A DNA stretch of 64,000 nt, taken from a virus. Below, piece by piece: positions 2,072 to 64,000 of this stretch; positions within the stretch are counted from its first letter, which is position 1, and each line of letters starts with the position of its first letter. Below the pieces are notes generated by a model. It was not told where the DNA came from. It saw only the letters and a list, made by a program, of their open reading frames with translations, and searched no databases. A program made the position numbers and the translations under genes. The stretch spans positions 98,231-162,230 of the IMG/VR virus record IMGVR_UViG_3300045988_177552; one strand, given 5' to 3'.

Positions 2072-2410
2072 TTATTTCTTTAAGAAGGTTAGAAGATCAT
2101 TACATTCTTTACTAGGGCCAAATAGCTTTAAGTTTCTTTTTATCAATGGAATAAACTCTTTCGCCTTATGTTTCTTTACTATCCAGAAATTTATGGCGGG
2201 TAAGAATTCTCCAGTCAATAGATGTTCTGGCCTGATCTCACCATGAACCCTTTCAAAACATTCGGTACAAACAAGAGACCTGGTAGAAATTCCCATCATG
2301 GCACAAAATTTCTTCCAAATGGTATTCTTAACCATAAACCAATCTGTCTCTTTCTTCATCATACATCCGCATATTTCACATTTATGCATAATAATAAAAT
2401 TTAAATTCAC
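2072..2410 (-). CDS. zinc-ribbon protein
   Basis: CEICGC...CTEC pairs; called start is GTG, an ATG 7 codons downstream is more likely. Confidence 0.4.
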   Translation of the reverse strand: MNLNFIIMHKCEICGCMMKKETDWFMVKNTIWKKFCAMMGISTRSLVCTECFERVHGEIRPEHLLTGEFLPAINFWIVKKHKAKEFIPLIKRNLKLFGPSKECNDLLTFLKK

Positions 2411-2446
2411 ACTTATAAGGTTTTGAAAAGAAAAAAAGGAGGAGAC

Positions 2447-3508
2447 TTATAAATCTCCGCCCTTAATATATTCAACGATCAACTCAATACAGGCCTCCAC
2501 GTCAGTCCAACGTACAACTTCCACTGGAGTATGCATGGATCTGTTCGGGATACTCAAGAGAAGGGTTTCACAATCAAAGGATCTTTCCTGAATCCTTGAT
2601 GTATTTGTTCCTCCTGCCCTAGAGACGCCAACTTGATACGGAATTTCCTTCTCCTTGGCAACCTTAATGAGTTTCTCTGCTATTCTCCTACTCTTTCCAG
2701 GTCCAAATTCAATAACGACACCTTTCCCAAGCTTGACATCACCATACTTCGCCTTGGATATTCCGAATTCATCCTCAGTCGATGGAGTCACGTCTATGTC
2801 AATTGAAATGTCCGGATTAACTCTTGAAGCGACAACACCAGCACCTCTAAGTCCTGTCTCTTCCTGTGCCATTGCTGCTCCAATCAGATTTATCCCCTTC
2901 AAGTCATTATCCCCTAGCCTGGACATAACCTCCTCAGTGATATAAACTCCAATCTTATCATCGGTAGCCTCCGAAAGGATGAAATCTCCACTAGGTCCCC
3001 AATCAAGGTTCTCTAATCCTTTCTGAAATACGCAGAGACTTCCAATTCCTATCCCCAAGGATTCAACCTCTTCTTTATTTCTGCATCCCAAGTCAAGAAG
3101 AAGATCACTTACCTTTACCACTTTCTCGTATTCATCATCCTCTTGAACATGGATCGGTTTATAAGAGATTGCCCCAAGGTAGGATGTCCCATTTGATGTC
3201 AAGACCTGTAACCTTGAACCCGGCAGGACTCTTCTATCTTCTCCGGACAGGCAGGTAATATTACAAAATCCTCCTTCCGTTATGTTTGTTATCATGAAAC
3301 CAAGCTCATCAATGTGGCCTGATATCATAACCTTCTTTCCTCCCTTGTCTCCTTTTCGGAATACGCAGTTATTGAAGCTATCCTGGAAGAGAAGTTCACT
3401 ATTCCCTTCCATTTGTCTTTTGAATACCTCTACTCCACGTCCCTCGTCTGACGTTGGGGTTGGTGTTAGTAAGAGGTCTAGTAAGAAATTTTTATTATTC
3501 TTTTTCAT
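2447..3508 (-). CDS. M42-family aminopeptidase (FrvX/glutamyl aminopeptidase-like)
   Basis: 353 aa; MISGHIDELGFMI motif and overall layout typical of M42 peptidases. Confidence 0.55.
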   Translation of the reverse strand: MKKNNKNFLLDLLLTPTPTSDEGRGVEVFKRQMEGNSELLFQDSFNNCVFRKGDKGGKKVMISGHIDELGFMITNITEGGFCNITCLSGEDRRVLPGSRLQVLTSNGTSYLGAISYKPIHVQEDDEYEKVVKVSDLLLDLGCRNKEEVESLGIGIGSLCVFQKGLENLDWGPSGDFILSEATDDKIGVYITEEVMSRLGDNDLKGINLIGAAMAQEETGLRGAGVVASRVNPDISIDIDVTPSTEDEFGISKAKYGDVKLGKGVVIEFGPGKSRRIAEKLIKVAKEKEIPYQVGVSRAGGTNTSRIQERSFDCETLLLSIPNRSMHTPVEVVRWTDVEACIELIVEYIKGGDL

Positions 3509-3729
3509 ACTTCTTTAAATTTGTTTTTAAAGTCCTCTCTTTCTCTGACATATATACTTCCGCCTAGTTCAGTATCCTGGTACATTACTGCCTCAAACCA
3601 TCTTCTTGTTGTTGGATCTTTAGCAGTACATAAGCCAAGAACTTTATATTTTCCATCATGACTTAATCCCGTCTTAGGATTAGGTGTTTGATCTCTGAAC
3701 TCCACTATGGTTCCCTTGTCTGTAATCAT
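3505..3729 (-). CDS. hypothetical small protein
   Basis: 74-aa ORF tightly packed between neighbours. Confidence 0.3.
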   Translation of the reverse strand: MITDKGTIVEFRDQTPNPKTGLSHDGKYKVLGLCTAKDPTTRRWFEAVMYQDTELGGSIYVREREDFKNKFKEV

Positions 3730-31238: not shown

Positions 31239-32771
31239 ATGATTACTTACATTATTTGTGGTGTAGTAGCAGTGCTATTAGTAGTGTTAATCTCAAGTAG
31301 TTATGTCAAAGCTCCTCCCTCATTTGCCTTTGTAATCTCTGGTCTCAATAAAGAGCCTAGGGTACTCATTGGCAAGGGCGGATTCCGAGTTCCTGGATTG
31401 GAGCGCCTGGACAAAGTGTATCTTGGCCAAATCACAGTTGACGTTGATACCGAAGGAAGTGTTCCTACAAACGATTTCCTCGATGTCATTGTATCATCTG
31501 TCGCTAAGATACGTGTAGTCCAGACTCCGGAAGGTATTAGGTTGGCTGCTAAGAACTTCCTCAACATGACATCTGAAAAGATCTCTGAGCAAGTTAGAGC
31601 AACTCTCCAAGGTAACCTCCGTGAAATCATTGGAACTATGGACCTCAAATCTCTTAACATCAACAGAGAGGGATTCAGTCAGGCAGTTACGAAGAGTGCA
31701 ACACCAGACATGGACAAACTTGGTATTGAGATTCTTAGCTTCAATATCCAGAACATCAGTGATAAGGACGGCTTGATTCGTGATCTCGGTGCTGACAATA
31801 CTGCTAGCATCAGGAAGGCAGCCGCTATCAATAAGGCTAATGCTACACGTGATATCAAGATTCAAGAGGCAATCGCTGAACGTGAAGCAAACGAGGCCCG
31901 TGTTGAAGCTGATACTGCCATCGCTGAGAAGAATAATGAGCTTGAGCTGAAAAAAGCGGCCTTGAAGAAACAGTCTGATGCAGCAAAGGCAGAGGCTGAT
32001 GCAGCTTATGAGATTCAGAAGCAGATCCAGCAGAAGACTATCAACATCTCAAAATCAGAAGCTGAGATTGAATTGAAGAAGCAGCAACAGATCATCTCTA
32101 ATGAATCAATCAAGATTAAGGAGAATGAACTTACTGCAACAGTCAACAAACAGGCTGAAGCAGACAAGTACAAGACTCAGGTTAATGCAGAGGCTGAGCT
32201 GGAACAAAGAAAGAGAAAGGCTGAAGCTGAGCGTTATGAAAAGGAACAACAGGCTGCTGCTAGGAATGCAGAGGCTGACGCTATAAGGTACGCTCAGGAA
32301 CAGAAAGCTCTTGGTATTAAGGCAGAAGGTGAAGCTGAAGCCGCTGCCATAGAAGCTAAGGGTAAGGCAGAAGCAGCAGCAATTGAAGCTAAGGCAAAAG
32401 CTGAGGCCGCTGGTATGAAAGAAAAAGCAGAAGCATTCAAGCAGTACAATGATGCTGCTGTAACTCAAATGCTTATCGATAAACTTCCTGAGGTTGCCAA
32501 TTCTGTCTCAAGTGCTATCGCTGGCATCAAGGGTATCAATATCTACAGTGCCGGAGGTGGCGATGGCGAAGGAGCTATCGGTTCAGTATCAGGCAATGTT
32601 CCTGTAGTGATCAAGCAGGTTTTTGACACTATGGAGAGCGTTACTGGAGTTCCTATGGCTGAACTCGTCAAGGCTCATACAATCGAGGCTAAGACAACCA
32701 GGAAGATTCAGGTTGATGATGCCCTGGCTGAAGTAGCTGATGAAATACTTGAAAGCGCTAAGAAAAAGTAG
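31239..32771 (+). CDS. SPFH/band-7 flotillin-like protein
   Basis: N-terminal TM helix, SPFH core, long EA-rich coiled coil (AEAAAIEAKGKAEAAA repeats); elevated GC. Confidence 0.7.
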   Translation: MITYIICGVVAVLLVVLISSSYVKAPPSFAFVISGLNKEPRVLIGKGGFRVPGLERLDKVYLGQITVDVDTEGSVPTNDFLDVIVSSVAKIRVVQTPEGIRLAAKNFLNMTSEKISEQVRATLQGNLREIIGTMDLKSLNINREGFSQAVTKSATPDMDKLGIEILSFNIQNISDKDGLIRDLGADNTASIRKAAAINKANATRDIKIQEAIAEREANEARVEADTAIAEKNNELELKKAALKKQSDAAKAEADAAYEIQKQIQQKTINISKSEAEIELKKQQQIISNESIKIKENELTATVNKQAEADKYKTQVNAEAELEQRKRKAEAERYEKEQQAAARNAEADAIRYAQEQKALGIKAEGEAEAAAIEAKGKAEAAAIEAKAKAEAAGMKEKAEAFKQYNDAAVTQMLIDKLPEVANSVSSAIAGIKGINIYSAGGGDGEGAIGSVSGNVPVVIKQVFDTMESVTGVPMAELVKAHTIEAKTTRKIQVDDALAEVADEILESAKKK

Positions 32772-32889: not shown

Positions 32890-34764
32890 ATGAATGGAAG
32901 GTACGAAGACATTAATCAAATTGATTTGGTATTAAGTATGTTTAATCAATACCTATTCCAGGATTGTAAGAATAATATTGATGACTTGATATATTCTTAT
33001 CAGACTAATATGGCAACAAACGGCAATAGACTGGTAGAGTTACTCTTGGATTCAATAAAAAATTACACCCTGGATAATATTGGTTTACCATTATTTCAAA
33101 GCATCCTGGGGAGGTGTGGAAAAACTGGGCCTGAGAGTCAACAGATCATCAATAAGATCATAGAGTATAAGATGTACACTAAGGATCAGATTGAACCAAT
33201 GAAGAAATACGTTAAGGATATGATTGCTAAGACGTATATTCTCAGAGCTAATGATCGCTATAGTGATTCCCCTAGTGATTTCATAAACTACCTTAAGGGT
33301 GTAAACTTTAAATCTTCGGCTGTTGATTACTTGACATCTACGAAATTTGGAGATATAGATGTAAATTCAATCAAGGCGGAAGAACAAAACCAAGGAATTC
33401 CATCTTCTTTTGAGTGGATTAATCAAACTTTCCGCCCTGAATGTATGTATCCAAGGATGGGATTGTTCTGTGTTTCAATGCCTCCTGGTTGTATGGCAGG
33501 AGATACTGAGGTCTTTCTTGCAGATGGGACAGTAAAAACTCTGGAGGATCTCTATAAAAGCAAAAAGACAAATATTACGATCTATGCATGTGATGGAAAT
33601 GATCCAAAGGTTTCAGTAGCAGAGAATTGTCAGATCTCTAAGTACGTGAATTCCTGGTATGTAGTTGAGATTGATGGAAAGAAGGAATATAGGGTTACTG
33701 AAAACCACCCATTCCTAATGATAAACGGAGAATGGAAGAGGGCAGATAAGCTTGTTGAAGGTGATATTCTAATGACATTTAACTATAAGTCAGTAAATGA
33801 AAAAGTGATTCACACAATCACTAAGGTATATGTTGAGACCTTAAAGGAACCACAGCCAGTATATGACTTAGTAAATGTCGATCTCTATCATAATTATGCA
33901 GTAAAGTTCGACGAAACATCTGGATTCTTTAGCCACAACACTGGTAAGACCCTTTTCTGTATGCAAGAGTGTCTTTATATGTGCTTGAAAGGAAAGAAAT
34001 GTCATTATCTCTGTATGGGTGATATGACAGAATCCGACTTTATCATTCGTATGGCAGCTCAATATTTTGGAATCCCATTCTATGAGGCTAAAAGAAACTT
34101 CGATATCGTCTATGAAGAACTAAAGAAAGTCATAGGGGACAGACTTGAGATTACTTGTATTCCTGCCAGTGTTATTACAGTGGATGAATATATTGAATTT
34201 GTTAAGAGTAAGGACTATGATGTCTGTTTCTGTGATTATGATAGTCAGTTTAAATCTAATGTCTATACAGAATCAATGTACCTAACTTACGGTGATATCT
34301 ATGCTAAATTGAGTGAGCTTACGATACAGTATAAAAAACTAGTATTCATCTTAGCTCAGCCTATGAAAGCGTCTTGGTCTCTCCCTGTTATTGAAATTGA
34401 TCAGGTAGGTGAGAGTGCTAGGAAGATTCATGCCGTAGACTGGTGTTTGACAAGGGGACGTGAGCCTGGAAACTTGAATGGCTTGGGAATTTCTAAGATA
34501 GTTAAATCTAGACGTGGAGAGGAACAAGTTATAGATTACAATATTAGGCTGAACAACGGTAGATTTAAAAGTCTTCCTAGGGCAGTCTATGAGGATATCA
34601 AGCAGATTCCAGAAAAGAAAGACTATACAGAAGCTGAGATTGACAATATGATAAATAATTACCTTCAAGCTAGAGGACAGGTTCAGCAATCTATCAATAA
34701 TAAAATGGGAAATTCAGGAATAAACAATTCAGGACCTAATAGGAGAGGCGCGGCACCATTTTAA
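32890..34764 (+). CDS. RecA-fold replicative helicase (DnaB-like), intein-containing
   Basis: Extein junction restores PPG|TGKT Walker A; downstream VCFCDYDSQ resembles DnaB Walker B/DYLQ block. Confidence 0.55.
   Translation: MNGRYEDINQIDLVLSMFNQYLFQDCKNNIDDLIYSYQTNMATNGNRLVELLLDSIKNYTLDNIGLPLFQSILGRCGKTGPESQQIINKIIEYKMYTKDQIEPMKKYVKDMIAKTYILRANDRYSDSPSDFINYLKGVNFKSSAVDYLTSTKFGDIDVNSIKAEEQNQGIPSSFEWINQTFRPECMYPRMGLFCVSMPPGCMAGDTEVFLADGTVKTLEDLYKSKKTNITIYACDGNDPKVSVAENCQISKYVNSWYVVEIDGKKEYRVTENHPFLMINGEWKRADKLVEGDILMTFNYKSVNEKVIHTITKVYVETLKEPQPVYDLVNVDLYHNYAVKFDETSGFFSHNTGKTLFCMQECLYMCLKGKKCHYLCMGDMTESDFIIRMAAQYFGIPFYEAKRNFDIVYEELKKVIGDRLEITCIPASVITVDEYIEFVKSKDYDVCFCDYDSQFKSNVYTESMYLTYGDIYAKLSELTIQYKKLVFILAQPMKASWSLPVIEIDQVGESARKIHAVDWCLTRGREPGNLNGLGISKIVKSRRGEEQVIDYNIRLNNGRFKSLPRAVYEDIKQIPEKKDYTEAEIDNMINNYLQARGQVQQSINNKMGNSGINNSGPNRRGAAPF
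33490..33939 (+). other. mini-intein (150 aa, no endonuclease domain) inserted in helicase P-loop
   Basis: Block A CMAGDTEV, block B TENHPF, blocks F/G VYDLVNVDLYHNYAV...SGFFSHN followed by extein T. Confidence 0.7.
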
Positions 34765-34767
34765 ATT

Positions 34768-36153
34768 ATGGAAGAATTAATAAACAGCCCAGAGATGATG
34801 CTTAGACTAGATCTTGAAAAAGAAACCTACTCTAAGTATTATCACGACTTGGTAGACTACTGTAAAAACAAGTACCCAGGAAGAGATAAGTCTATTTATG
34901 TAGACTATCTTGAAGAGCATCATATTCTACCTCGGTGTATGGGAGGAAAGGATGAAGATAGCAACTTAGTACTAATGAACTATAGATGCCACGTCTTAGC
35001 CCATTGTTTACTATTTTTAATGGATCAAGACAGTAGAAGCTTGGCGAAAGCTGCTTGGTACATGTTATATACAGCAAATAACAATAGGGGAGGAAAGGAT
35101 ATAAATAGTTTAATATTAAGTTTCGAAAAATTTAAGGAAGAGTTATTTAATACGCTAAAGAAACCAATCGTATGTCTATCTTTAGATCTTAAGGTTGTAA
35201 AAATATACAAAGGAGTTCTAGAAATAAAAGTAGATGGTTTTTCTCCAAAACTTATGAGTCGAGTCCTAAAGAATAGGGAAATGCACAAAGGGTATCTGTG
35301 GGAAAGATTAGAAGATGTTGAAGATAAATATCCAGAAGAGATAAAAGAGTACTACAGAGACTTGGAAAATGGGAATGTTCGAACCATAAATAAAGATAAA
35401 ACTTGGATAAAAGAACAGACTACGCTGTACAGATCTCGATATAGACGAGGAAATAAGGGAAAAACCGTGGTTGGGTATGATGACGAAGTGTATTGTGTAT
35501 TTAATAATATATCCGTTGCCAAGAGACTAGGATTTTCTGCTTCAATTATAAGTTTAAACATAAACAATAAAGCTACAGTCAATAATGGGGGATACTCTTG
35601 GAAACTTATTAAATCAGATGACGACTTAAAAGATATCTCAAGTAGTAGAAAGAGAGTAGAAGAAATTCACCCTAAATCAAAAAGAGTTATCTGTTTTGAT
35701 AAAGAGAATAATAGAATTATTAAAATTTACAAAACACAAAAGGATACCGCAGCGGACGGTTTTGTTTATACTACTGTTTGTTCAGCTTTGGCAAGTGATT
35801 CTAGAAAATATTGTGGATATTATTGGTATCTAGAGTACGAATGGAAGGATAAAGATCTTCTAGAGGATTATAATAGAAGAGATGTTTTACCCGAAGTTAT
35901 TGTAAATAGGCCAAACGATCCCATAAAATTAGTTCAATTAAGTGAAAACCATAAGATTGTAAATGTATTTAGTAATCTACATGATGCTAAACCATTTGAC
36001 TATCGAGCATTAAGCAAGGTCCTAAAAAAGGAAGATAGGTTCTATAAAGGATTCTTTTGGTTTACAATGGATGAACTGAAAGTTAAATTTCCAAACATTA
36101 TAAAAGAATATGAAGAAAGAATTAAGTATAGTAATAACACTAGAAAAAATTAA
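34768..36153 (+). CDS. HNH homing endonuclease with repeated putative DNA-binding modules
   Basis: HHILPRCMGG...N...HVLAH HNH core; three repeats with G[YF]xW + acidic KYPEEIKEY-like blocks. Confidence 0.65.
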   Translation: MEELINSPEMMLRLDLEKETYSKYYHDLVDYCKNKYPGRDKSIYVDYLEEHHILPRCMGGKDEDSNLVLMNYRCHVLAHCLLFLMDQDSRSLAKAAWYMLYTANNNRGGKDINSLILSFEKFKEELFNTLKKPIVCLSLDLKVVKIYKGVLEIKVDGFSPKLMSRVLKNREMHKGYLWERLEDVEDKYPEEIKEYYRDLENGNVRTINKDKTWIKEQTTLYRSRYRRGNKGKTVVGYDDEVYCVFNNISVAKRLGFSASIISLNINNKATVNNGGYSWKLIKSDDDLKDISSSRKRVEEIHPKSKRVICFDKENNRIIKIYKTQKDTAADGFVYTTVCSALASDSRKYCGYYWYLEYEWKDKDLLEDYNRRDVLPEVIVNRPNDPIKLVQLSENHKIVNVFSNLHDAKPFDYRALSKVLKKEDRFYKGFFWFTMDELKVKFPNIIKEYEERIKYSNNTRKN

Positions 36154-41406: not shown

Positions 41407-42459
41407 TTAATTCGTCTCCGCTGATCCTGAAGCCTTCATAATAAGATCCTCAGTAATCAACAGGTAGGAGATACTATTATAATATTCACTACTATCGTTC
41501 GGAGTTATAATAAAGCTGAGAGGGAAATGTTTCTCAATCTCCTTGCAGAATGTCTCGTCCCCTAGGAGTTTCTTGAAAAGATATGCTCCACCTCCAAGCA
41601 TGACAAGATTATTGGCAGCATCAAGGAACTCTCCATATCTCTCTTCAATTAAGTTCAAGACATTAACGAAATATCTCTTAGTAAACTGATTAACTACCTC
41701 TGAGAGATTAACTTCACGTCCCCTACGCCTGAGAATTCCAGTATCTACAACGGTCTGAGCTTCCTTAATTGAAATTCTATACTCGAAATTCTTGTAGATA
41801 TAATCTGACATATCTCTAGCGATTACGATAATTCCTGTGTCGGGAAGTCCTATCGTAGCACCAACAGAAGACTTCCTATTAATCACAGAACAAAGATCAA
41901 CGGTGAGATAACCAATGTCTGCGATTACATAGGAGTCGAAATCATTAACCTTCGTTGCATTAGCTGCATTTTCCCTAATATTTGCTCCAAACTTCTGAAG
42001 TGTATACCTACTTGACATAGCCTGAGGAAGACATACGAAGAACTGAGAATCTGGAGAAATCATCAAGGCGTCGTATAAGGTCTGAAGGAGTAGATCTGCT
42101 TTCTTAACAAATGCAAAACTAAGTCCAATAGCTACCTTATCAAACTTTATATGTTCCAACTTCTTCAACATATAACTAACCCAAGCAGGATAAACAGCCA
42201 ACATATCCTCGAATGTCTCTAGGGGAAGGAGATAACTACGGGCCGTCCTAAGAGCAGAAGGACCGAGGAGGAACCAGTCTGCACCAAGTCTGAAAGTCTC
42301 ATCATTATCTGCTGTTGTTGGAGGTTCTGGAAGTTTGGCAGCAGCTGAAATAATCTTATCGCTAACCATCTTTCCATTCTCATCAATGTAAGTATACTTT
42401 AGTGCTGAATAACCAAGATCCAGCGCTAGAATTTTAGCTCTTTTTTCCATAACGTTCAA
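41407..42459 (-). CDS. actin-like ATPase (ParM/Alp family)
   Basis: phosphate-1 ILALDLGYSALK, phosphate-2 IADIGYLTVDL, adenosine LMLGGGAYLF. Confidence 0.6.
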   Translation of the reverse strand: MNVMEKRAKILALDLGYSALKYTYIDENGKMVSDKIISAAAKLPEPPTTADNDETFRLGADWFLLGPSALRTARSYLLPLETFEDMLAVYPAWVSYMLKKLEHIKFDKVAIGLSFAFVKKADLLLQTLYDALMISPDSQFFVCLPQAMSSRYTLQKFGANIRENAANATKVNDFDSYVIADIGYLTVDLCSVINRKSSVGATIGLPDTGIIVIARDMSDYIYKNFEYRISIKEAQTVVDTGILRRRGREVNLSEVVNQFTKRYFVNVLNLIEERYGEFLDAANNLVMLGGGAYLFKKLLGDETFCKEIEKHFPLSFIITPNDSSEYYNSISYLLITEDLIMKASGSAETN

Positions 42460-47016: not shown

Positions 47017-48642
47017 TTATTCCTCTTTAGTAGCAACCTTTGGCTCACAGGTAATCGTACAGTCAATAAGCAAGATCATTGAGGCTGCACTGATACTATT
47101 CTCCAAGCTTACACGAAGGGCCTTTGATGAATCCAAGACACCTGACTCAATAAGATCCTCGAACTTCTTTGTCTTAGCATTGAATCCATAACCAGGCCTA
47201 TTCTCCTTGGATGCTATATCAAGTACAACATCCCCTGAGACTCCAGAATTCTCAGCAATAGTCTTCATGATGATGGGGAGTGATTTCTGAACAATCTTTA
47301 TACCCTCTTTCTCATCCTCCGTACAACCTTCCCAAAGCGTCTTATCAAGATCCATAGACTTTGAAGCTTGGTAGAAGATATAACCACCACCAGGAGCACA
47401 TCCCTCTTCAATAGCGGCCCTAGCAGCAAGGATAGCATCTTCAATCGTAGCTTTCCTATTCGCTGTCTCTGCCTCTGATGCACCACCAGCCTTAATTACA
47501 GCTATACCACCAGTCAAGTTGGCAACTCTCTTCTCAAACTTCGTCTTATCATAATCTGAAGTCTGAGGGTCAACAAGTCGCTTCTTGAGAATTTCAGCCC
47601 TCTCATTGATTTCGCTCGGATTTCCTGCACCCTCATAGATGATACAAGAATCCCTTCCAACAACGACCTTCCTAGCCTGACCAAGATCTGACAGGGAAGC
47701 TTGGATAACTGAAACTCCATTTTCCTGACAAATATGAGTACCCCCAACTACAATAGAAATATCCTCCATTGTATTCTTCCTGTTGTCTCCATAATCGATA
47801 CCCTTCACTACACAGCACCGAATAGCACCACGTAGGGTATTGAAAACGAACATCGCATTGACAGTCTCATCCATGTCATCACAGATAATAAGGAGAGGAC
47901 GACCTTGTGAATTTCCCTGATAATCCTCCAAGAGATTCATAAGTTGAGCAACAGATGAAATTCTCTCTGAGGCAACCAGGATATAAGGATTCTCAAGAAC
48001 ACACTTTCCTTCCTCCGGTGATGTGACATATTGAGGACTAGCCCATCCACGATCCAGTTTCATACCGGTCGTGATGTCAATGGTTGTATCAAGTCCTGCA
48101 CTTCCTTCAGCGGTGACAAGAGAATTAATGCCTACCTCCTTGAAAGCCTGCATAACCAAGTTTCCAACCTCAGGATCATTGTTCGCTGAAATAGTAGCAA
48201 CCTTCCTGATTTTCTCAAGATCAGAACCAACCTCGATACTGTTAGCCTTGATATACTCGGTCATCCACTTTCCAGCTTTCAACATACCTGACTTGAGTTC
48301 ATTGACATTAGCTCCAACACTGACCGCCTTCTGTCCTTTCTTACAGAACTCCCTGATTAAGAGAGATGTAGAGGAAGTTGCATCACCAGCCTTATCCTCA
48401 GTCATTGATGCTGCCTTCTTAACAAGCTCTGCACCAATATTTTCCTCTGGATCACTGAATTTGACGGACTTTGCAATAGTGGCTCCATCTCTTGTAATCT
48501 GGACACCAAAACCATCATCCTCAATGGCAATACCCCTACCTGCAGGACCCATAGAAAGCTTAATCGCATCTACAATTTTGTCTACACCAGCAATAACCTT
48601 AGCCTGTGTAGAATCACCAAGCTTAATTACCTTGTTTTCCAT
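47017..48642 (-). CDS. groL: chaperonin GroEL (Cpn60)
   Basis: 541 aa; GPAGRG-type N-terminal block, ATP-binding segments, typical length; directly downstream of groES. Confidence 0.85.
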   Translation of the reverse strand: MENKVIKLGDSTQAKVIAGVDKIVDAIKLSMGPAGRGIAIEDDGFGVQITRDGATIAKSVKFSDPEENIGAELVKKAASMTEDKAGDATSSTSLLIREFCKKGQKAVSVGANVNELKSGMLKAGKWMTEYIKANSIEVGSDLEKIRKVATISANNDPEVGNLVMQAFKEVGINSLVTAEGSAGLDTTIDITTGMKLDRGWASPQYVTSPEEGKCVLENPYILVASERISSVAQLMNLLEDYQGNSQGRPLLIICDDMDETVNAMFVFNTLRGAIRCCVVKGIDYGDNRKNTMEDISIVVGGTHICQENGVSVIQASLSDLGQARKVVVGRDSCIIYEGAGNPSEINERAEILKKRLVDPQTSDYDKTKFEKRVANLTGGIAVIKAGGASEAETANRKATIEDAILAARAAIEEGCAPGGGYIFYQASKSMDLDKTLWEGCTEDEKEGIKIVQKSLPIIMKTIAENSGVSGDVVLDIASKENRPGYGFNAKTKKFEDLIESGVLDSSKALRVSLENSISAASMILLIDCTITCEPKVATKEE

Positions 48643-53762: not shown

Positions 53763-54794
53763 ATGATTGAAAAAGAAACAAAGTATTCGTATCGTGACTT
53801 ATTCATTAAACCGAGAACCACTTCGTATATTCGTCATCGGTCAGAGTGCATTCTCCCCGATACCCTTCCCTTGATTACTGCCCCTATGGATAGTATTGTA
53901 GGGAAAGAAAATTTCGAAGAGTGGAAGAAGAACGGTATTACTCCTATTCTTCCTAGGACATTCAGCTTAGAGGAGAGACTTGAGTTTGGATCTCATAATT
54001 GGATCGCCCTGGGGTTGGATGAATTCGAGGGAGCAACTTTACCGAAAGGCCAGCATGTCTTGATTGATATAGCCAATGGACATATGGAGGACTTATACGA
54101 CGCCGTCAGGAAAGCAAAGTATGAGGATCCTTCCCTTGTTGTAATGGTTGGAAACATAGCTAACCCTGAAACCCTCATTGTAGCGGAAGAGGCTGGAGTT
54201 GATTATATTAGGGTTGGTATAGGAGCAGGACAGGGTTGTATAACTGCCTCTAACGTCTCTGTATCTTATCCAATGGCCTCCTTAGTGAATGACTGCTATG
54301 AGGTAAAAGTGAGGCACGGACTTAGGGTTGGAATTGTAGCAGATGGTGGTGTCAGGAATTATTCAGATGCTATAAAAGCCCTTGCCCTTGGAGCAGATTA
54401 TGTCATGATTGGTTCAGTATTCGCCAAGATGTTAGAGTCTTCGGGTGAGATTCTTAGTTTCCCTGAACTCCCTAGGTTCATTAGGGAAGAAGATATGGAG
54501 ACTTACGGAATTGAGCCGGATTTTACTAAGAATGGAATTGGTCTAAAGAAGATATTCTATGGTATGGCTTCAAGACAAGGACAGATTGCTATGCATGGAC
54601 AAAAGACTAGAACATCTGAGGGTATAATGAAGTTCTTGCCTGTAGAATATACAATGAGGACTTGGGTCGAGAATTTCAGAGATTACCTGAGATCCGCCAT
54701 GTCTTATACTGGTCATAAGAGGCTTTCAGATTTCATTGGCAGTCCTACATTGATCGTTGCTTCTCCACTAACGGTTGAAGGAATAAATAAGTAG
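53763..54794 (+). CDS. GMP reductase / IMP dehydrogenase-family enzyme
   Basis: 343 aa TIM-barrel; ANGHMED, GIGAGQGCITAS (catalytic Cys loop), IVADGG blocks. Confidence 0.7.
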   Translation: MIEKETKYSYRDLFIKPRTTSYIRHRSECILPDTLPLITAPMDSIVGKENFEEWKKNGITPILPRTFSLEERLEFGSHNWIALGLDEFEGATLPKGQHVLIDIANGHMEDLYDAVRKAKYEDPSLVVMVGNIANPETLIVAEEAGVDYIRVGIGAGQGCITASNVSVSYPMASLVNDCYEVKVRHGLRVGIVADGGVRNYSDAIKALALGADYVMIGSVFAKMLESSGEILSFPELPRFIREEDMETYGIEPDFTKNGIGLKKIFYGMASRQGQIAMHGQKTRTSEGIMKFLPVEYTMRTWVENFRDYLRSAMSYTGHKRLSDFIGSPTLIVASPLTVEGINK

Positions 54795-55744: not shown

Positions 55745-56326
55745 TTAGTATTTCCAGATCTTATGCAACCTACAGCCAAGGAGATTTCCCAAGACTTCAG
55801 CTATCCAGATTAATTCAACTTCACCATTGCCGGTCATACTCATAAAATAGAATGAATCTGCTATGCTATGTGTAAATCCAGCCATGATGAAGAGTGGAAT
55901 GCCTAAGAGTATTGGTAAGACCCTCTTGGATTCTCTATAGTGTTCAACAGCTGTAGTCATGATTATACCACATCCTATTGCTAAGAGAAAACAGTCGATT
56001 ATCCCATGCTGTATTCTTCCTTCTGTTATAGTCCTGGCTCCTTCCACTACTTCTGGCATGGCAATTATACACACTAGGAATGAGATCAGTGTTCCCAAGA
56101 TATTACCTCCCAGGATTATACCGAGTCTCTTCCAGGATTCCAATGACTTATGATCAAAGAATCCCGCTGTTCCTGTATATAGCCCTAATCCATAGTAGCA
56201 AACACTAATCAGGCCAAAGGAGAATAATACGGCTCCTATGATACCTCCGACTTTAATGTTTACTATGCAGCCTAAGGAAATGAATATTCCAGCTCCAATC
56301 GATTCCCTTAAAGTCTTACTTATCAT
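55745..56326 (-). CDS. integral membrane protein (possible small-molecule transporter)
   Basis: 193 aa, 5-6 hydrophobic helices. Confidence 0.4.
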   Translation of the reverse strand: MISKTLRESIGAGIFISLGCIVNIKVGGIIGAVLFSFGLISVCYYGLGLYTGTAGFFDHKSLESWKRLGIILGGNILGTLISFLVCIIAMPEVVEGARTITEGRIQHGIIDCFLLAIGCGIIMTTAVEHYRESKRVLPILLGIPLFIMAGFTHSIADSFYFMSMTGNGEVELIWIAEVLGNLLGCRLHKIWKY

Positions 56327-57837: not shown

Positions 57838-58896
57838 ATGAACAAGATCGTAGTTTACACATCAAATCTTGATGTAAATCCCAAAAACATGGGAGACGTC
57901 ATCGAGTTCGCAAAAAGAACACCGAAGTTCTACATTGCGTCTGTAGGGGCTAGTGAAACACTTGCCAATGTGAAACCAGGAGACCAGATTATTACTAAGA
58001 AGGGCAATTCCCTCTATGTAATTCGTGCGTTCGACAAAGACCTGGAGAATCTCTCTGACGAAGACCGTAACTATCTCGCCGAAATCAAGGGTGCGTACGG
58101 TGCTCGTAATATGAATATCACCAGTGTAGGTCAGATTATCAAGTTTGAGACCTGGTGCAAATCAGCAAAACCATTCATCAATTTAAAATCAGAAACAAAA
58201 ATGAAGAATTCAATCAGTGGCCTCAGTGCCCGTCTTAAGGAGCTCTATACTCCTACTGAAGCAAAGGATGTACGTGTAACCGCTCAGGGTGACATCTGTG
58301 TAGAAACAAAGAACGGCTTCGTAGCTATCGACGCCAATGGTAAGCTCAACTCATACGTAGAGGAGCTCACTGTGAAGCTGCCTTGCTACATCATGTCAAA
58401 GCCCGCTAATGCTCTCCAGCCTGGTGATATTCTCGCCCTGGATAAGAGCTACGCAAAGGTTACTGAAGTGAAGGGTGACAAGATCTCTGCTATCGGCTAT
58501 ACCGGTGCAGTCAAGACCATCCGCACTATCAACGACGTCCTGTTCAACCAGACCATGGTACGCGTTGTCGTATCTCTCGCTGGCAATCTCGGCGGTGGTG
58601 CACTCAACCCTCTTATGTTGATGCTCCTCAGCGACGACGAAGAGAAGTCTAGCAAGAAGGACCTCCTGCCTCTGCTCATGATGAGCCAGAACGGTGGTGC
58701 ACTTCAGGCTAATCCCCTGATGATGCTCGCCCTCACAAAGGACGGTGAAGGATCTTCTATGAAGGACCTCCTGATGCTCAGCGCTATGTCTAGTAATGGC
58801 ATGAACCTTTTTGCTGGTCTCGGTGCTCAGCCTGCCGCTCCTGCAACTAACGCAACTGGTGCAGCACAGGCAGCTGATCCTAAGGCCGCTGAATAA
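57838..58896 (+). CDS. abundant hypothetical protein with C-terminal Met/Leu-rich triple repeat
   Basis: 352 aa, high GC and codon bias; repeats NPLMLMLLSDDEEKSSKKDLL / LMMSQ.. / LMMLALTKDGEGSSMKDLL; long 5' leader. Confidence 0.45.
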   Translation: MNKIVVYTSNLDVNPKNMGDVIEFAKRTPKFYIASVGASETLANVKPGDQIITKKGNSLYVIRAFDKDLENLSDEDRNYLAEIKGAYGARNMNITSVGQIIKFETWCKSAKPFINLKSETKMKNSISGLSARLKELYTPTEAKDVRVTAQGDICVETKNGFVAIDANGKLNSYVEELTVKLPCYIMSKPANALQPGDILALDKSYAKVTEVKGDKISAIGYTGAVKTIRTINDVLFNQTMVRVVVSLAGNLGGGALNPLMLMLLSDDEEKSSKKDLLPLLMMSQNGGALQANPLMMLALTKDGEGSSMKDLLMLSAMSSNGMNLFAGLGAQPAAPATNATGAAQAADPKAAE

Positions 58897-58967
58897 ATAA
58901 TAAATGGAGCTACTTTACTGTGGGAGTAGTTCCATTCTTTTTGTTAATATCAAACTTTTTAGCATAG

Positions 58968-59795
58968 ATGGAAAATTTTTCATGTGGGATATTAAGTTTA
59001 TGCACAATGTATAAATGTGATTTTGATGGACATTCCATTGATCACTTTTCAGATTGTGAGTCAGCCGCTTGTTTTGGCGGTTATACTGGGCTTCTCAGGA
59101 AAGAAAAATACAGGCCACAGGAGAAACTTGATGTAACTCTGGATATCAAAATAAGAACGTTCGATCACTTCCTTGAGGATCATAAGGGAAAGAATAACTT
59201 TTGCCTCTTAGGGAAGAAAGATATTGAGGAGCATTTCGCTTATCTCAGTGAAACCTATTGTATCGATTGTTCTGTTCAGGTTTTCGGAGACGATTGGAAG
59301 GAGCTCGAAGATGATAAGTTGCCTGAGGAGAATTATTACCTCAAGCTTCATCTCAACGCTACTCCAGGACAGCAGGTATTTGCCCTGACTTGGTGTAGAC
59401 ATCTTTACGAGTTTCCGTTCAATATGTTCCTCCTTGATGCACTTCGTCTTAAGAAGGAGTTTGGGGAATTCAGGAACGAACACCTAGCCAATATCATCCA
59501 AGTAGTCGGATCTTCTTTTGCTAAGGTCTCATACTATAGAGGTGATCAGTGTCTGTGTGAGCCTCAGAAAGAGTTGATAACAGAGGATAGACTCTGTAAA
59601 CACTTGACTTCTCACAAGACGATAACAAGTGCTTGGAATTCACTGTCGGAAGAAAAGCGACAGGCAATTAAGCCGCTCCTTTCTAATGAGGATACTTTGA
59701 AGAAGTCAACCTACTGGCTCGATCCTCAGACTTTTGACGAGAGGAAGAATATCTATCTCCAGAACTATATGTCAATTTATAATTTTATAGGATGA
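58968..59795 (+). CDS. hypothetical protein, paralog A1 of duplicated module
   Basis: 275 aa; paralogous to 60375..61169 (LTWCRHLYEFPFNMFLLDALRLKKEF vs LTWIRYIYEYPYNLILMDSRRLKKG). Confidence 0.4.
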   Translation: MENFSCGILSLCTMYKCDFDGHSIDHFSDCESAACFGGYTGLLRKEKYRPQEKLDVTLDIKIRTFDHFLEDHKGKNNFCLLGKKDIEEHFAYLSETYCIDCSVQVFGDDWKELEDDKLPEENYYLKLHLNATPGQQVFALTWCRHLYEFPFNMFLLDALRLKKEFGEFRNEHLANIIQVVGSSFAKVSYYRGDQCLCEPQKELITEDRLCKHLTSHKTITSAWNSLSEEKRQAIKPLLSNEDTLKKSTYWLDPQTFDERKNIYLQNYMSIYNFIG

Positions 59796-60430
59796 AAGAA
59801 AAAGCGATAAAAGTTTATGTAGTGGGTCCGTCTACAGGTTATTCTGGATTTATTGAGAATAAGGTACTTGTAGATAAGATGGAGGAGGCTCAAGTTGTAT
59901 TGTTTACTGGCGGAGAAGATATCAATCCCCGTCTCTATAACAAGGCTCCACATCACTCAGTCTATTATACGGACCGTCGTGATAAGATGGAAGTAGCTGC
60001 CTTTGAGAAAATAAGGCCGGGACAGATTGCCGTAGGTATATGTAGGGGCGCTCAATTATTCTGTGCTTTGTATGGTGGTATCTTAGTTCAGGACTGTGAC
60101 CGTCATTGGGGTCATGGCAAGCATACAATTACGAATGGAACTCAGGAATTTACTGTTACCTCCATTCACCACCAGATGCAATACCCTTATGACCTGCCTA
60201 ATGAGGATTATGAGGTCTTATTCTGGTCAGAGGGGAGAAGCTCCTACTATGAAGGCGATGGTGTTGACCCAAAGAAGATAAAGGAATTCGGAGAGCCTGA
60301 GGTTACTGTTTTCCATCGTGAAGGTATGCCGTTGTGTTTCGGAATTCAAGGACACCCCGAGATGATGGATAGAAATGATCCGTTCGTTAAGTGGGTTAAT
60401 GAGAAAATCCATGAATACGTTGAAGGATGA
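59792..60430 (+). CDS. class-I glutamine amidotransferase-like / C26 gamma-glutamyl hydrolase-like protein (copy 1)
   Basis: nucleophile elbow GICRGAQLF, IQGHPE His-Glu motif. Confidence 0.6.
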   Translation: MKEKAIKVYVVGPSTGYSGFIENKVLVDKMEEAQVVLFTGGEDINPRLYNKAPHHSVYYTDRRDKMEVAAFEKIRPGQIAVGICRGAQLFCALYGGILVQDCDRHWGHGKHTITNGTQEFTVTSIHHQMQYPYDLPNEDYEVLFWSEGRSSYYEGDGVDPKKIKEFGEPEVTVFHREGMPLCFGIQGHPEMMDRNDPFVKWVNEKIHEYVEG

Positions 60431-61169
60431 AATTACTGGGAGAACCTCTTATTATACCTGTTATAGGAACGGTAACGATAAGATTAAGAGGGGACAAGGA
60501 TGTTTCAGCTCTATCTTCTATAAGGGCAAATTAGATGATATCTCTAGTAGGACGTATCATGTCTATGCCTTTATCGGATTTGGTTGTACAGTAAGTAATA
60601 ACTGTTTCATGACCAAAGAGGAAGTGGAGGAACACCTGGGATACCTCAATGATATTGTTCCCCTAGAGCGTTATTCAGTTAAAGAGACAAAGTTTCCTTA
60701 TCCTGGTACAAAAGGAATTCCAGCTTTTGATATATCCATAAAGCTTAAGAATCAGAGGAGAATAAAACATAAGTATGCCTTGACTTGGATAAGGTATATC
60801 TATGAATATCCTTACAATCTTATTCTCATGGATTCAAGGAGGCTGAAAAAGGGATTGCTTCAGGATGAAACGATGATTAATCTCTTTACTCTCGTTGTTA
60901 GATGTTTTAAGTGTAGTAAATATATGTATGGCGCAGGTCATGCAATGCCATTACCGGCTTCATCTGGTTTCATTTCAGATGTAGATGTTATCAAGAAATT
61001 GGATGGCACACTGAAACTTAATTCAATCTTCCCAACGACTTCAGTGAAGGTACCAACATTGCCGGGAGGCTCAGAAACCAAGTTCTTAGAATATTGGGCG
61101 GCAAATGAGTACTTTGATCAGAGAGCCAAGATTTATATGGAAGCATATAAAAAACTAAAAGGACAATGA
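60375..61169 (+). CDS. hypothetical protein, paralog A2
   Basis: 264 aa, paralog of 58968..59795. Confidence 0.4.
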   Translation: MIRSLSGLMRKSMNTLKDEITGRTSYYTCYRNGNDKIKRGQGCFSSIFYKGKLDDISSRTYHVYAFIGFGCTVSNNCFMTKEEVEEHLGYLNDIVPLERYSVKETKFPYPGTKGIPAFDISIKLKNQRRIKHKYALTWIRYIYEYPYNLILMDSRRLKKGLLQDETMINLFTLVVRCFKCSKYMYGAGHAMPLPASSGFISDVDVIKKLDGTLKLNSIFPTTSVKVPTLPGGSETKFLEYWAANEYFDQRAKIYMEAYKKLKGQ

Positions 61170-61792
61170 AAAATTTAAAAGTTTACGTAGTGGGTGGATC
61201 ACTTAGGTATTCCTCGTTTATCAAGGAATGTGAAGTGGTTGATGACATAAAATCCGCCCAGGTAGTGATATTTACAGGAGGTGAAGATGTTTCGCCTTCA
61301 ATGTATGGTTGTAGGAAACATAAGAAAACATCTTGCAACTTAGAACGTGATAAGAAAGAGGAGAAGATCTTTAAGAGCATTCGTCAGGATCAGTTGGTGA
61401 TTGGCGTATGTAGGGGATCTCAGCTCCTGTGTGTGTTAAATGGTGGAATCCTCGTGCAAGACGTGCCAGGTCATGCAACAGGAAGAACGCACGAGATAAC
61501 AAATGGTGAGATGGCATATCAGATTACGTCCACACATCACCAAATGCAGTATCCGTATGTATTGAATGAGAAAGAGTATTCTGTTCTCTACTGGTCATCC
61601 CTCAATGCTGGAAATTACGAGGGAGATAAGGTAGACGGAAATATCATAATGGAAAAGGGAGAGCCAGAGATTGTGCTTTATAAGAAAAAAGGAAAGCCTA
61701 CCTGTCTGGCTATTCAAGGGCATCCCGAAATGATGGTTGATGCCCCGGTTGTTGATATGTTAAATAAATTAATTGAAGAATATGTACATTGA
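61166..61792 (+). CDS. class-I glutamine amidotransferase-like / C26 protein (copy 2)
   Basis: GVCRGSQLL, IQGHPEMM; paralog of 59792..60430. Confidence 0.6.
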   Translation: MKNLKVYVVGGSLRYSSFIKECEVVDDIKSAQVVIFTGGEDVSPSMYGCRKHKKTSCNLERDKKEEKIFKSIRQDQLVIGVCRGSQLLCVLNGGILVQDVPGHATGRTHEITNGEMAYQITSTHHQMQYPYVLNEKEYSVLYWSSLNAGNYEGDKVDGNIIMEKGEPEIVLYKKKGKPTCLAIQGHPEMMVDAPVVDMLNKLIEEYVH

Positions 61793-62132
61793 AGATTTTA
61801 CAGTAGGTTCAGATCCCGAGTTGTTCATTATTAACGAGAAGACGGGAAAAGTAGTATCATCAATAGGTCTTATCCCTGGAGTAAAGGGAGAACCATGGGT
61901 TGGTAGTGATATGCCAAGTGGTTTCGGACTGGAGACTGACAATATCTTGGCGGAGTTCAACATTCCACCAGTGACTGATTGCGAGAATTTCGTGAATAAT
62001 ATCCAGTATATGAAGGATTATATCACGAAGTTTGTGAAGAGCCAAAATCCTGATCTGGGTATCAGGTGTATAGCATCTCAGATGGTTGATGCAAGCCAAT
62101 TACAAAGTGAAGAAGCACAGTTATTCGGTTAA
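61773..62132 (+). CDS. carboxylate-amine ligase (GCS2/amidoligase-like) N-terminal segment, putative exon 1
   Basis: FTVGSDPELFIIN resembles the GCS2 N-terminal hxhGxExEh motif; ORF stops exactly at start of structured insert. Confidence 0.45.
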   Translation: MKNMYIEDFTVGSDPELFIINEKTGKVVSSIGLIPGVKGEPWVGSDMPSGFGLETDNILAEFNIPPVTDCENFVNNIQYMKDYITKFVKSQNPDLGIRCIASQMVDASQLQSEEAQLFG

Positions 62133-62664
62133 AAAAAATAGCCGCCTACTAGGATTAATAGTAGGAAAATCGGACAAAAACGGTGAATAAATACCAAGAG
62201 TATATTGTTTAAATACCGTGATAACTCTGAGGATTGCGAAAGGCTTCAGAGTATTGTAGAGCGTAGGAAGTGAATAAATATAATCTTCCCAAGAGTGCCC
62301 GACATGAAAATGAAAATGTACGCCGAACTATAGCGAGAATTGGTGTAGCTATAGAAGTCTAGATAAAAAGCTAGGCGATAACATAATTGTGTGATCCTGA
62401 CTTCAACGCATACACACTTTCTGAGAACCCTAAACCAGAGGGAACAGCAACAAATCTGAGAAGTGCGGGTCGGTGGAAAGGCCCGAGAGCATAGTAATAT
62501 GTTCTTGAGAATAGATCAAAAACGGTAAACGAGTAAAATATAATGTCTTGGATACCGTGCTAATTATAAATTTAAAATGTTTATAACAGTGTAACGCATA
62601 GAGATTGAACCTGAGAAATCAGAATAAAATATCTCCACGAGTGATCTACCCCATGAGTTAATTG
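62130..62664 (+). other. candidate self-splicing (group I-like) intron, ORF-less
   Basis: 535-nt ORF-free insert starting with TAA; perfect hairpins cctacta/tagtagg, ctatagc/gctatag, ctctgagg/cttcagag; repeats ataccgtg, aaaacggt; R-like TTCAGAG element; joining 62129|62665 is in frame. Confidence 0.3.
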
Positions 62665-63123
62665 TGGGTGAAAATATATGCTGAACTTACGGAAAATATT
62701 TGGAACCGTAAGAACTGTGGGATAAAAAGCCTGCAGGTTAACAAATTGTTTCATATACATCTTGGATATCCGCATAACAATCAGGACGCATCCGTTGAAC
62801 TGGTAAAATACTTGGACTGCTATCTTGGAGTTCCTTCTATTGTTGAGGATCCTGATACAAAGCGTCGTTCCCTCTATGGAAAGGCTGGTGCATTCAGACT
62901 TCAAGATTGGGGAGTTGAGTATAGGTCCCTCTCATCTTATATGATGAGGAATGAGGAGTCCTTGAGGAAAGTTTGGAAGGGAGTACGACGTGCTATCCAT
63001 GCTTTCAATGAGGGATATGATCGTCCCGCTGAGAGTGATGTAGTAACGTGCATTAACAAGAGCAACGTCAACCTTGCAAAAGAACTCATCAAGGAGTATA
63101 ATCTTGAGTTTGATATTCACTAA
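62662..63123 (+). CDS. carboxylate-amine ligase C-terminal segment, putative exon 2
   Basis: no in-frame ATG near start (TTG called); FHIHLGYP resembles the GCS2 H-x-H-x-G catalytic motif. Confidence 0.4.
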   Translation: MWVKIYAELTENIWNRKNCGIKSLQVNKLFHIHLGYPHNNQDASVELVKYLDCYLGVPSIVEDPDTKRRSLYGKAGAFRLQDWGVEYRSLSSYMMRNEESLRKVWKGVRRAIHAFNEGYDRPAESDVVTCINKSNVNLAKELIKEYNLEFDIH

Positions 63124-63135
63124 CGGTTTAAGCTT

Positions 63136-64000
63136 ATGTGTGGAATCGCAGGTATATTGAATTTAAAGCCGAAGAAATTAGATTACGCAACCTTCACTTC
63201 AATGGGAATCTTGAATGATGAACGTGGTGGAGACGCTTGTGGTATCTTCATTGACGGCGACGTAGACTATGGAACCGCCGTGGATGATCGGCATTTCAGA
63301 GATTATTTCACAAAGAGTACTGTCCTGAAAGAGGCCAGGGATAAGAAAGTTAATATCGCCCTAGTTCATTGCAGGAAAGCCTCTGTTGGTGGTGTAGCTC
63401 CAGAGAAGGCTCAGCCAGTTGTTCTAAAAGACTCTAAGGGTAATGTGAGGTTCGTTATGATTCATAATGGAACTGTTCACAACTACGAGGCCTTAGCGAA
63501 GAAGTATATTCCTGATGTTAAAATCGAGGGTCTTACTGATTCACAGGTCTTGGCTAGGATATTCTATTACAAGGGATATGAGTGTCTTAGTGAGTATAAT
63601 GGTGGAGCAGCTTTCGTAACTGTAGATTATAGACAGCCCACTCCATTGGTATTGATGTGGAGAGGAGCTTCTAAGAAGACTGATGTTTCGAAAGAGGTTA
63701 CTGAAGAAAGGCCGTTGTGGTTTGTTTATAATAAAAAGAAGGCAGAGCTCGTATTCTGCTCTATTCCAGAAATCCTAGAAGCTTGTCGGCCTGATGAAAC
63801 ACTCTATAGGCCAGTTGAAAATAAGCTGGTTACATTCAGGTGGGATGACGAGAAGCCAGGAGAAGCTGAAGTTTATGTTCATGCTTCCTATTCTCGTGAT
63901 AAGTGTACCCAGACTAAGGAGTATACAGGAACGACTACCTATTATGGAGGTGGTTATTCTGGTTCCTACAACTGGGGAAGGTCTAGTGGTGTATCTTCTG
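63136..64000 (+). CDS. class-II (Ntn-type) glutamine amidotransferase, partial at window end
   Basis: N-terminal MCGIAG nucleophile Cys2; frame open to end of window. Confidence 0.6.
   Translation, partial: MCGIAGILNLKPKKLDYATFTSMGILNDERGGDACGIFIDGDVDYGTAVDDRHFRDYFTKSTVLKEARDKKVNIALVHCRKASVGGVAPEKAQPVVLKDSKGNVRFVMIHNGTVHNYEALAKKYIPDVKIEGLTDSQVLARIFYYKGYECLSEYNGGAAFVTVDYRQPTPLVLMWRGASKKTDVSKEVTEERPLWFVYNKKKAELVFCSIPEILEACRPDETLYRPVENKLVTFRWDDEKPGEAEVYVHASYSRDKCTQTKEYTGTTTYYGGGYSGSYNWGRSSGVSS

Follow-up and report, generated by a model that had tools for sequence, protein, structure and literature searches.

Evidence for two paralogous group I introns around a micro-exon in the amidoligase gene of a gut phage

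Phage genes may hold several group I introns with small exons between them and may undergo exon skipping, as has been described for Twort orf142 and the Bastillevirinae (PMC11878797). Jumbo gut ('Jug') phages carry on average 18.5 group I introns per genome, of about 206 nucleotides (nt) each, and metatranscriptome reads support splicing for 37 of 76 of them (PMC12880540); many short group I introns are also found in crAss-like gut phages (PMC7886860). Here we describe a related arrangement in a viral sequence of 64,000 nt, positions 98,231 to 162,230 of IMG/VR record IMGVR_UViG_3300045988_177552, which is referred to below as the window. An amidoligase gene of the PF14395 family on its + strand is interrupted twice, and comparison of alleles, exons and predicted RNA folds makes it very likely that the gene carries two paralogous group I introns that are spliced.

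As in the described multi-intron phage genes, there is more than one intron per gene, the introns are small, of self-splicing type and located at conserved codons, and the internal exon is short. A covarying hairpin at the place of the extra P7.1 helix, as well as one early stop codon per intron, adds to the likeness. Unlike those genes, which belong to DNA metabolism or structure, the host gene here is an amidoligase in an amidotransferase cluster, and thus an auxiliary-metabolism gene instead of the usual DNA-metabolism target. A further difference is that both introns lack an open reading frame (ORF) and are paralogues of each other (57.8% identity), and that we infer their splicing. With the Jug and crAss-like phages the locus shares a gut phage gene fragmented by short group I introns, in a window that also contains an intein and an HNH gene. 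Relatives of the amidoligase gene are located on contigs of 305-373 kb, and the source contig measures 213 kb.

ORF-less introns are said to be mobilized by free-standing endonucleases in T-even phages, and such 'collaborative homing' was reportedly described by Zeng, Bonocora and Shub in 2009 for a cyanophage psbA intron. The amidoligase introns resemble homing introns in their presence or absence at exact sites, in being more conserved than their host gene and in the short donor exon tracts that flank them. They differ from collaborative homing in that no endonuclease was identified here and in that two introns and the intervening exon moved as a unit. Our finding is a further case of a known phenomenon and leaves the knowledge of how group I introns work unchanged; it is distinct in the host gene, in the well-resolved transfer history and in the failure of the Rfam model RF00028 (Intron_gpI), whose full length is matched by relatives whereas the two window introns fall below every reporting threshold.

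Exons, introns and the joined protein

The amidoligase gene extends from 61782 to 63123 on the + strand and is composed of three exons and two introns (Table 1). An ORF at 61773..62132, from which an earlier note on this DNA had started, does end at TAA 62130..62132, but the real start codon is ATG 61782, which overlaps the 3′ end of the upstream GATase gene. The intron-less allele L001 (ENA, 1299 nt) is collinear with the window minus exactly 62130..62389 and 62471..62748. It fixes each junction to within one base, and at both junctions a choice with an exon-final T and an insert-final G is available. The insertion sites are therefore exact, since intron-less alleles narrow them to one base and the U/G rule of group I introns decides the rest. 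The empty site 2 of L001 reads GGA, not GGT. Both introns end in …AAUUG, like 11 of 13 aligned relatives, and the true 3′ splice site of intron 2 lies between G62748 and T62749.

Joining 61782..62129, 62390..62470 and 62749..63120 yields a protein of 267 amino acids (aa). A search with this protein returned 3176 homologues, the best of which are PF14395 proteins of ~263 aa at a coverage of 97-100%, and its match to PF14395 (COOH-NH2 ligase type 2) scores 51.7 bits against a cut-off of 25. Aligned with eleven homologues, the joined protein shows zero internal gaps; with P0002 alone it shares 73% identity, again with 0 gaps. All residues that are invariant in the 12-sequence alignment are kept, the frame is intact through the three exons, and both exon junctions fall at invariant positions of this alignment (G116/C117 and G143/F144). 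The block encoded by exon 2 (E2) is nearly invariant in the protein family, with 13 positions invariant across the 12 aligned homologues. On the source contig E2 was recovered by tblastn with the joined protein, and it is 99-100% identical in loci L175-L178 and L181. Overall, removing both inserts restores an uninterrupted host gene, as evidenced by the gapless alignment and by the existing intron-less alleles.

A search of viral contigs for related loci with the joined protein returned distant relatives only (≤43% identity), all of them uninterrupted. A PDB sequence search with the amidoligase profile gave nothing meaningful.

Table 1. Exons, introns, helices and the transferred tract of the split amidoligase gene, in window coordinates
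Feature	Position	Strand	Description and basis
Exon 1 (E1)	61782..62129	+	116 codons, MYIEDF…AQLFG; aligns to residues 1-116 of intact homologues
Intron 1	62130..62389	+	260 nt, ORF-less, group I; begins with the in-frame stop TAA 62130..62132, terminal G 62389
Exon 2 (E2), micro-exon	62390..62470	+	81 nt, 27 codons, frame 3; translation CDPDFNAYTLSENPKPEGTATNLRSAG (CDPDFNAYT…RSAG)
Intron 2	62471..62748	+	278 nt, ORF-less, group I; in-frame TAG 62492..62494 after seven codons, terminal G 62748
Exon 3 (E3)	62749..63123	+	124 codons and stop, FHIHLGY…EFDIH
P1 of intron 1	62126..62144	+	Minimum-free-energy fold; spans the 5′ splice site; pairs C62126-G62144, G62127-C62143, G62128-C62142, U62129·G62141 (splice-site wobble), U62130-A62140, A62131-U62139
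P2 hairpin of intron 1	62145..62165	+	P2 position covaries in the family
Intron 1 core	62170..62302	+	Alignment-column-to-coordinate map and covariation; P3 62170-62176/62296-62302 (one A×C mismatch), P4 62180-62185/62214-62219, P5 62188-62190/62209-62211, P6 62220-62232/62244-62255, P7 5′ strand 62259-62265 (G[A]GCGUA), P7.1 62266-62270/62285-62289
Intron 1 3′ part	62303..62389	+	Minimal P8 (C)AU-GAAA-AU(G) 62303-62312, then J8/7; P7 3′ strand UACGCC 62319-62324; P9 62328-62334/62348-62354; P9.1 62357-62362/62371-62376, loop AUAAAAAG; tail GAUAACAUAAUUG
P1 of intron 2	62466..62485	+	Minimum-free-energy fold; pairs C62466-G62485, G62467-C62484, G62468-C62483, G62469-C62482, U62470·G62481 (splice site), C62471-G62480
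Intron 2 helices	62486..62748	+	Fold, column map and covariation; P2 62486-62493/62498-62505 (GUAA loop), P3 62512-62518/62642-62648, P4 62522-62527/62553-62558, P5 62530-62532/62548-62550, P6 62559-62570/62579-62590, P7 62594-62600/62677-62682 (A[C]GCAUA/UAUGCU), P7.1 62601-62605/62631-62635 with inner hairpin CUGA-GAAA-UCAG, P8 62650-62656/62662-62668, P9 62686-62692/62706-62712, P9.1 62715-62721/62730-62736
Transferred tract	~62085..62788	+	≤45 nt of E1, intron 1, E2, intron 2 and ≤40 nt of E3; three-way base-by-base comparison

Folds, intron family and the Rfam search

The two inserts fold more stably than shuffled sequences (z = -3.4 and -4.2; 0 of 200 shuffles as stable), in line with the structured insert that the earlier note had proposed. 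The three hairpins it had picked out are present, namely cctacta-N7-tagtagg at 62145..62165, ctctgagg-N11-cttcagag at 62225..62251 (with one G·U pair) and ctatagc-N13-gctatag at 62328..62354, and they represent P2, P6 and P9 of intron 1. The internal repeats it had pointed to are real, because the stretch holds two paralogous elements, and the stop codon it had placed directly after the 5′ splice site is the TAA that opens intron 1.

A P4-based pattern retrieved 107 viral loci. In about 60 of these an nhmmer profile finds about 85 related elements, often 2-4 per locus. A profile from which the window sequences had been excluded still detects intron 2 with E = 1e-45 and intron 1 with E = 9e-41, and has no third match anywhere in the window; blastn and nhmmer searches of the window with the introns likewise returned no additional copies. 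The identity between introns 1 and 2 given above is that of the core, and both have the same hairpin layout. The closest kin of intron 1 are introns of tape-measure genes (~69%), that of intron 2 is its orthologue in L097 (80%). Each of the two retains 80 of the 82 positions that are ≥90% conserved among the other 40 members. A recent tandem duplication of one intron was considered and rejected, given the 57.8% identity and the fact that each intron is nearer to other family members.

RNAalifold consensus structures were computed for 13 and for 42 members, with the P7 pseudoknot added by hand and slid pairing partners as control. Both sets recover P3, P4, P5, P6, P7.1, P8 and P9.1, and the 13-sequence run adds P2 and P9. 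For 13 sequences 96% of the cells are paired and 43 of 64 pairs are compensatory; for 42 sequences the values are 93.8% and 35 of 44. The slid-partner controls reach 32-45% paired cells in these sets, and 32-43% in the set of 13. The P7 pseudoknot is 100% paired in the 42 sequences and includes three covarying pairs. It has an outer pair, followed by a bulged base and by a G-C pair (columns 219/379) invariant in 42/42 sequences, where guanosine would bind. In subgroup IA, extra pairings (P7.1/P7.2 or P7.1/P7.1a) separate P7 from the 3′ strand of P3. A covarying hairpin, here called P7.1, is located at exactly this place; it has an inner hairpin in intron 2 and is a single hairpin in intron 1. 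Judged from their sequences, the two introns appear to be independent, ORF-less members of the compact type common in phages, with an extra P7.1 helix, that bracket an 81-nt exon.

Some results weigh against this reading. Rfam gives no group I match at gathering thresholds over the whole window, and RF00028 is also silent at E ≤ 10 on 3 kb, on 661 nt and on intron 2 alone, and at E ≤ 1 on the 64 kb. The longest ORFs within the inserts are only 30-35 aa long, and no homing endonuclease is encoded inside or adjoining the introns. The P8 of intron 1, with 2-3 base pairs (bp) and a GAAA loop, is the shortest in the family sample, in which a 4-bp P8 is common. Because of this shortest P8 and the A×C mismatch in P3, the autonomous activity of intron 1 could be weak or protein-dependent.

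A covariance-model check with Intron_gpI and group II models, as the earlier note had suggested, thus matched neither intron. We judge the RF00028 result to be a false negative caused by the sensitivity of the model, because homologues match RF00028, the leave-out profile finds both introns and intron-less alleles define their sites. The relative at L030:2221-2488 scores 66.9 bits (gathering score 50) and the one at L030:1644-1883 scores 41.5 bits. The L030 matches extend over all model positions (1-253), keep P2-P9 in register and show an insertion at the P7.1 position. In a scan of 14 family loci with RF00028 one element only reached the gathering score. Surveys that use RF00028 alone will undercount phage group I introns, as this compact family of >80 members is mostly missed, and the lack of an RF00028 match does not speak against a group I intron.

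Members of the family occur in other genes and often close together. Tape-measure genes are interrupted by relatives twice in L030 (1644..1925 and 2221..2530) and once in Staphylococcus phage 6ec (L173 753..1698), where the intron carries an HNH endonuclease ORF. In several loci (L037, L040, L088, L035 and L019/L022/L073) 2-4 members lie near each other. The member at L090 5029..5295 has a P1 nearly the same as that of intron 1 (CGGU/UAAUUUAAUAGCCG) and no reading frame across the junction. Its joined flanks, …ATCGGT/TCGAGTCCGAT…, look like a transfer RNA (tRNA) T-arm; ARAGORN found neither a tRNA nor a transfer-messenger RNA in the spliced L090 context.

Alleles in public assemblies and transfer of the cassette

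Independent assemblies contain the gene in four states of occupancy, with no intron, intron 1 only, intron 2 only and both introns. Three classes of proteins, taken from the 90%-identity cluster of P0001, reflect these states. Alleles without introns are represented by L001 and by the full-length proteins P0124, P0129, P0132 and P0134. In L175-L178 only intron 1 is present, and 153-aa proteins start at its last codon and read through E2 and E3; this class comprises P0123 and four others, found on 18, 6, 4, 4 and 2 contigs. L179-L182 contain both introns, with proteins of 146-152 aa that start within intron 2 (P0122 on 27 contigs, plus others). Intron 2 alone is found in L097 (same contig as L170) and in L171, which belong to a more distant lineage with 71% aa identity in the N-terminal part. 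There it occupies the same codon, and in L097 its P1 shows a compensatory change, with the exon sequence CAGGU and the guide GCCUG. Many 146-153-aa proteins in databases are artefacts of these introns. On the source contig, exon 1 is the only part of the gene among the public gene calls, as a 116-aa fragment; the following stretch of about 1 kb (62133..63135, L169 3968..4970), with exons 2 and 3, is uncalled.

Between lineages, identity reaches 98.8-100% in the introns, against 84-91% in the exons on either side. Compared with L180-L182, the window shows about 91% identity in E1 and about 84.5% in E3, versus 98.8% in intron 1, 95-100% in E2 and 100% in intron 2. All intron 1 copies in L175-L182 are 98.8% identical to that of the window, and the intron 1 alleles vary in the loops L1, L2 and L5 only. 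Intron 2 of L179 (1302..1581) differs from that of the window only in P6, where an unrelated, fully complementary stem, CCAGACC…GGUCUGG, stands in place of the entire stem-loop; this looks like a helix swap and not like drift by point mutation. Intron variation that is confined to loops or compensatory is the pattern expected under selection on RNA structure.

A three-way base-by-base comparison of the window, L001 and L181 shows a mosaic. Upstream, the window is 98.1% identical to L001; the value drops to 70% over the final 40 nt of E1, 81.5% over E2 and 76.2% over the initial 42 nt of E3, and is 96.2% beyond. Within the tract given in Table 1 the exon parts have no mismatch to L181, and outside it the window follows L001. 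The breakpoints are located between 62084 and 62094 on the left and between 62781 and 62789 on the right. Because the window is L001-like outside the tract and its exon parts are those of L181 inside, the transfer took place in one block: an L001-like genome received the cassette of intron 1, E2 and intron 2 in one piece from an L181-like genome, together with short co-converted flanks. The transfer is recent and occurred between gut-phage lineages. Since neither intron encodes an endonuclease, mobility must rely on an outside enzyme or on general recombination, and the route was probably either the repair of double-strand breaks made by an outside endonuclease or simple recombination in co-infected cells. 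With four states, a donor and a recipient lineage and breakpoints within about 10 nt, the locus provides an unusually complete natural record of intron spread.

L097 and L002 were also tried as donors of the tract and neither fits; the L181 type does. Just after the amidoligase start, L001 has a 1-nt deletion (441/442, window 61792) that shifts the frame of the first codons; at a coverage of 1.9x this may equally well be an assembly error or a true frameshift. The window forms part of a 212,999-nt ENA contig (ERZ27229646 k119_201540, our L169), to which it is identical over the 5835 nt compared, and a look-up of exon 1 identified the source contig as sole carrier. Exact look-ups of the 153-aa TTG ORF and of P0121 found neither on record, and an exact-pattern scan of viral contigs for the intron 1 lineage returned nothing. 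Megablast of 59000..64000 against INPHARED gave just two 73-nt matches, both inside intron 1, so this collection lacks the phage.

Proposed splicing, alternative readings and neighbouring genes

By homology to characterized group I ribozymes, which act by two-step transesterification, splicing could proceed as follows. The gene would be transcribed as a single pre-mRNA in which each intron folds into a P1-P9 core. A free guanosine bound at the P7 G-C pair would attack the phosphate after the exon-terminal U (U62129 or U62470); the terminal G (62389 or 62748) would then occupy the guanosine site, and the freed upstream exon would attack the 3′ splice site. Joining of E1, E2 and E3 would generate the reading frame of 267 codons. 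The early in-frame stops (TAA 62130 and TAG 62492) would bar ribosomes from the ribozyme cores. In T4 td an early stop codon is known to shield the ribozyme core in this way.

The two introns and the in-frame micro-exon might form one functional unit, which we consider unlikely on the present evidence. In one version they would be co-mobilized by an endonuclease that is encoded elsewhere and cuts the empty amidoligase site, and the en-bloc transfer fits this. In the other, exon 2 would be skipped, with the 5′ splice site of intron 1 spliced directly to the 3′ splice site at the end of intron 2; the frame-preserving length of the exon and the similar splice contexts (CGGU/ and CGGGU/) are consistent with this. 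Because exon 2 has 27 codons, the skipped product would be in frame, with 240 aa and without the invariant CDPD…RSAG block. If true, exon-2 skipping would switch amidoligase activity at the level of splicing, a mode of control reported for SIOphi and Twort genes.

It is improbable that the inserts are dead or splicing-incompetent remnants and the gene a pseudogene in this phage. The minimal P8 and the P3 mismatch of intron 1, the failure of Rfam to recognize either intron and the lack of annotation of exons 2 and 3 in public gene calls are compatible with decay. However, 80 of 82 family-conserved positions are kept per intron, all helices are intact, and the variation among alleles is confined to loops or compensatory. 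The three-exon frame is likewise intact with every residue invariant in the 12 sequences kept, and the double-intron allele recurs in many samples (P0122, 27 contigs).

Even less probable is non-intron mobile DNA resembling miniature inverted-repeat transposable elements or insertion sequences, or a set of naturally separate polypeptides. The inserts are indeed short, repeated, hairpin-rich and present in many copies among phage genomes, but their junctions show neither target-site duplications nor terminal inverted repeats and their removal restores the codons exactly. Moreover, covariation conserves an RNA-level fold including a pseudoknot on one strand, and homologues match the group I model. 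As for separate polypeptides, the 27 aa of exon 2 cannot stand alone as a protein.

The arrangement proposed in the earlier note, a single 535-nt group I intron at 62130..62664 with exon 62129 joined to 62665 and a 271-aa product, has almost no likelihood left. This join is in frame, and G62664 is preceded by AAUUG like the true intron ends; the downstream ORF 62662..63123 does start with TTG, as noted then, and carries FHIHLGY. Its first ~29 codons, however, are intron read in frame, since PF14395 matches only from residue 31. The stretch is also not one ORF-less insert, as 62390..62470 codes in frame 3 for the conserved 27-aa block, which the single-intron join loses while adding 28 residues unlike homologues; against P0002 these residues are non-homologous where the three-exon join aligns without gaps. 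G62664 belongs to helix P8 of intron 2 (its 3′ strand), L001 is collinear with E1, E2 and E3 and not with the 62129 to 62665 join, and in intron-1-only alleles E2 and E3 form one continuous frame. Of the original proposal, a group I element that splits the amidoligase gene holds on the basis of homology and covariation, and the anatomy is replaced by two introns of 260 and 278 nt that flank an 81-nt exon.

Group II introns have six domains including domain V, usually contain a reverse-transcriptase ORF and are at least ~600 nt long, and the bypass of T4 gene 60 covers 50 nt. A group II intron or translational bypassing over the gaps has nothing specific in its favour and can be set aside as next to impossible, given that the window has no Rfam group II match, that the inserts of 260-278 nt are far below group II size and encode no reverse transcriptase, that the gaps exceed the gene 60 bypass about fivefold and that the features expected of group I introns were tested for and found.

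Two paralogous group I introns in the amidoligase gene are thus the reading that we retain. The gene lies in a cluster that extends over window 57838..64000 and on into L169 6332.. and includes Peptidase_C26/GATase class I genes at 59792..60430 and 61166..61792, unknown ORFs and the PF14395 amidoligase. These are followed by a class II (Ntn) amidotransferase of 460 aa (63136..) and then by a 457-aa protein with a weak Amidoligase_2 match.

Elsewhere in the window, at 32890..36153 on the + strand, a DnaB-like helicase ORF of 624 aa holds an intein splicing domain (PF14890, residues 208-350, E = 4e-10), and an HNH homing-endonuclease gene (34768..36153) is located directly after the helicase ORF. 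Because of this intein and HNH gene, the phage carries selfish elements beyond the two introns. Genes typical of large phages encode a Lon-like protease (3726..6470), an SbcC-like protein (25073..27835), an SPFH/flotillin protein (31239..32771), a ParM/actin-like protein (41407..42459), GroEL (47017..48642) and an IMPDH/GMP-reductase-like protein (53763..54794). A formate/nitrite transporter, which is unusual for a phage, is encoded at 55745..56326.

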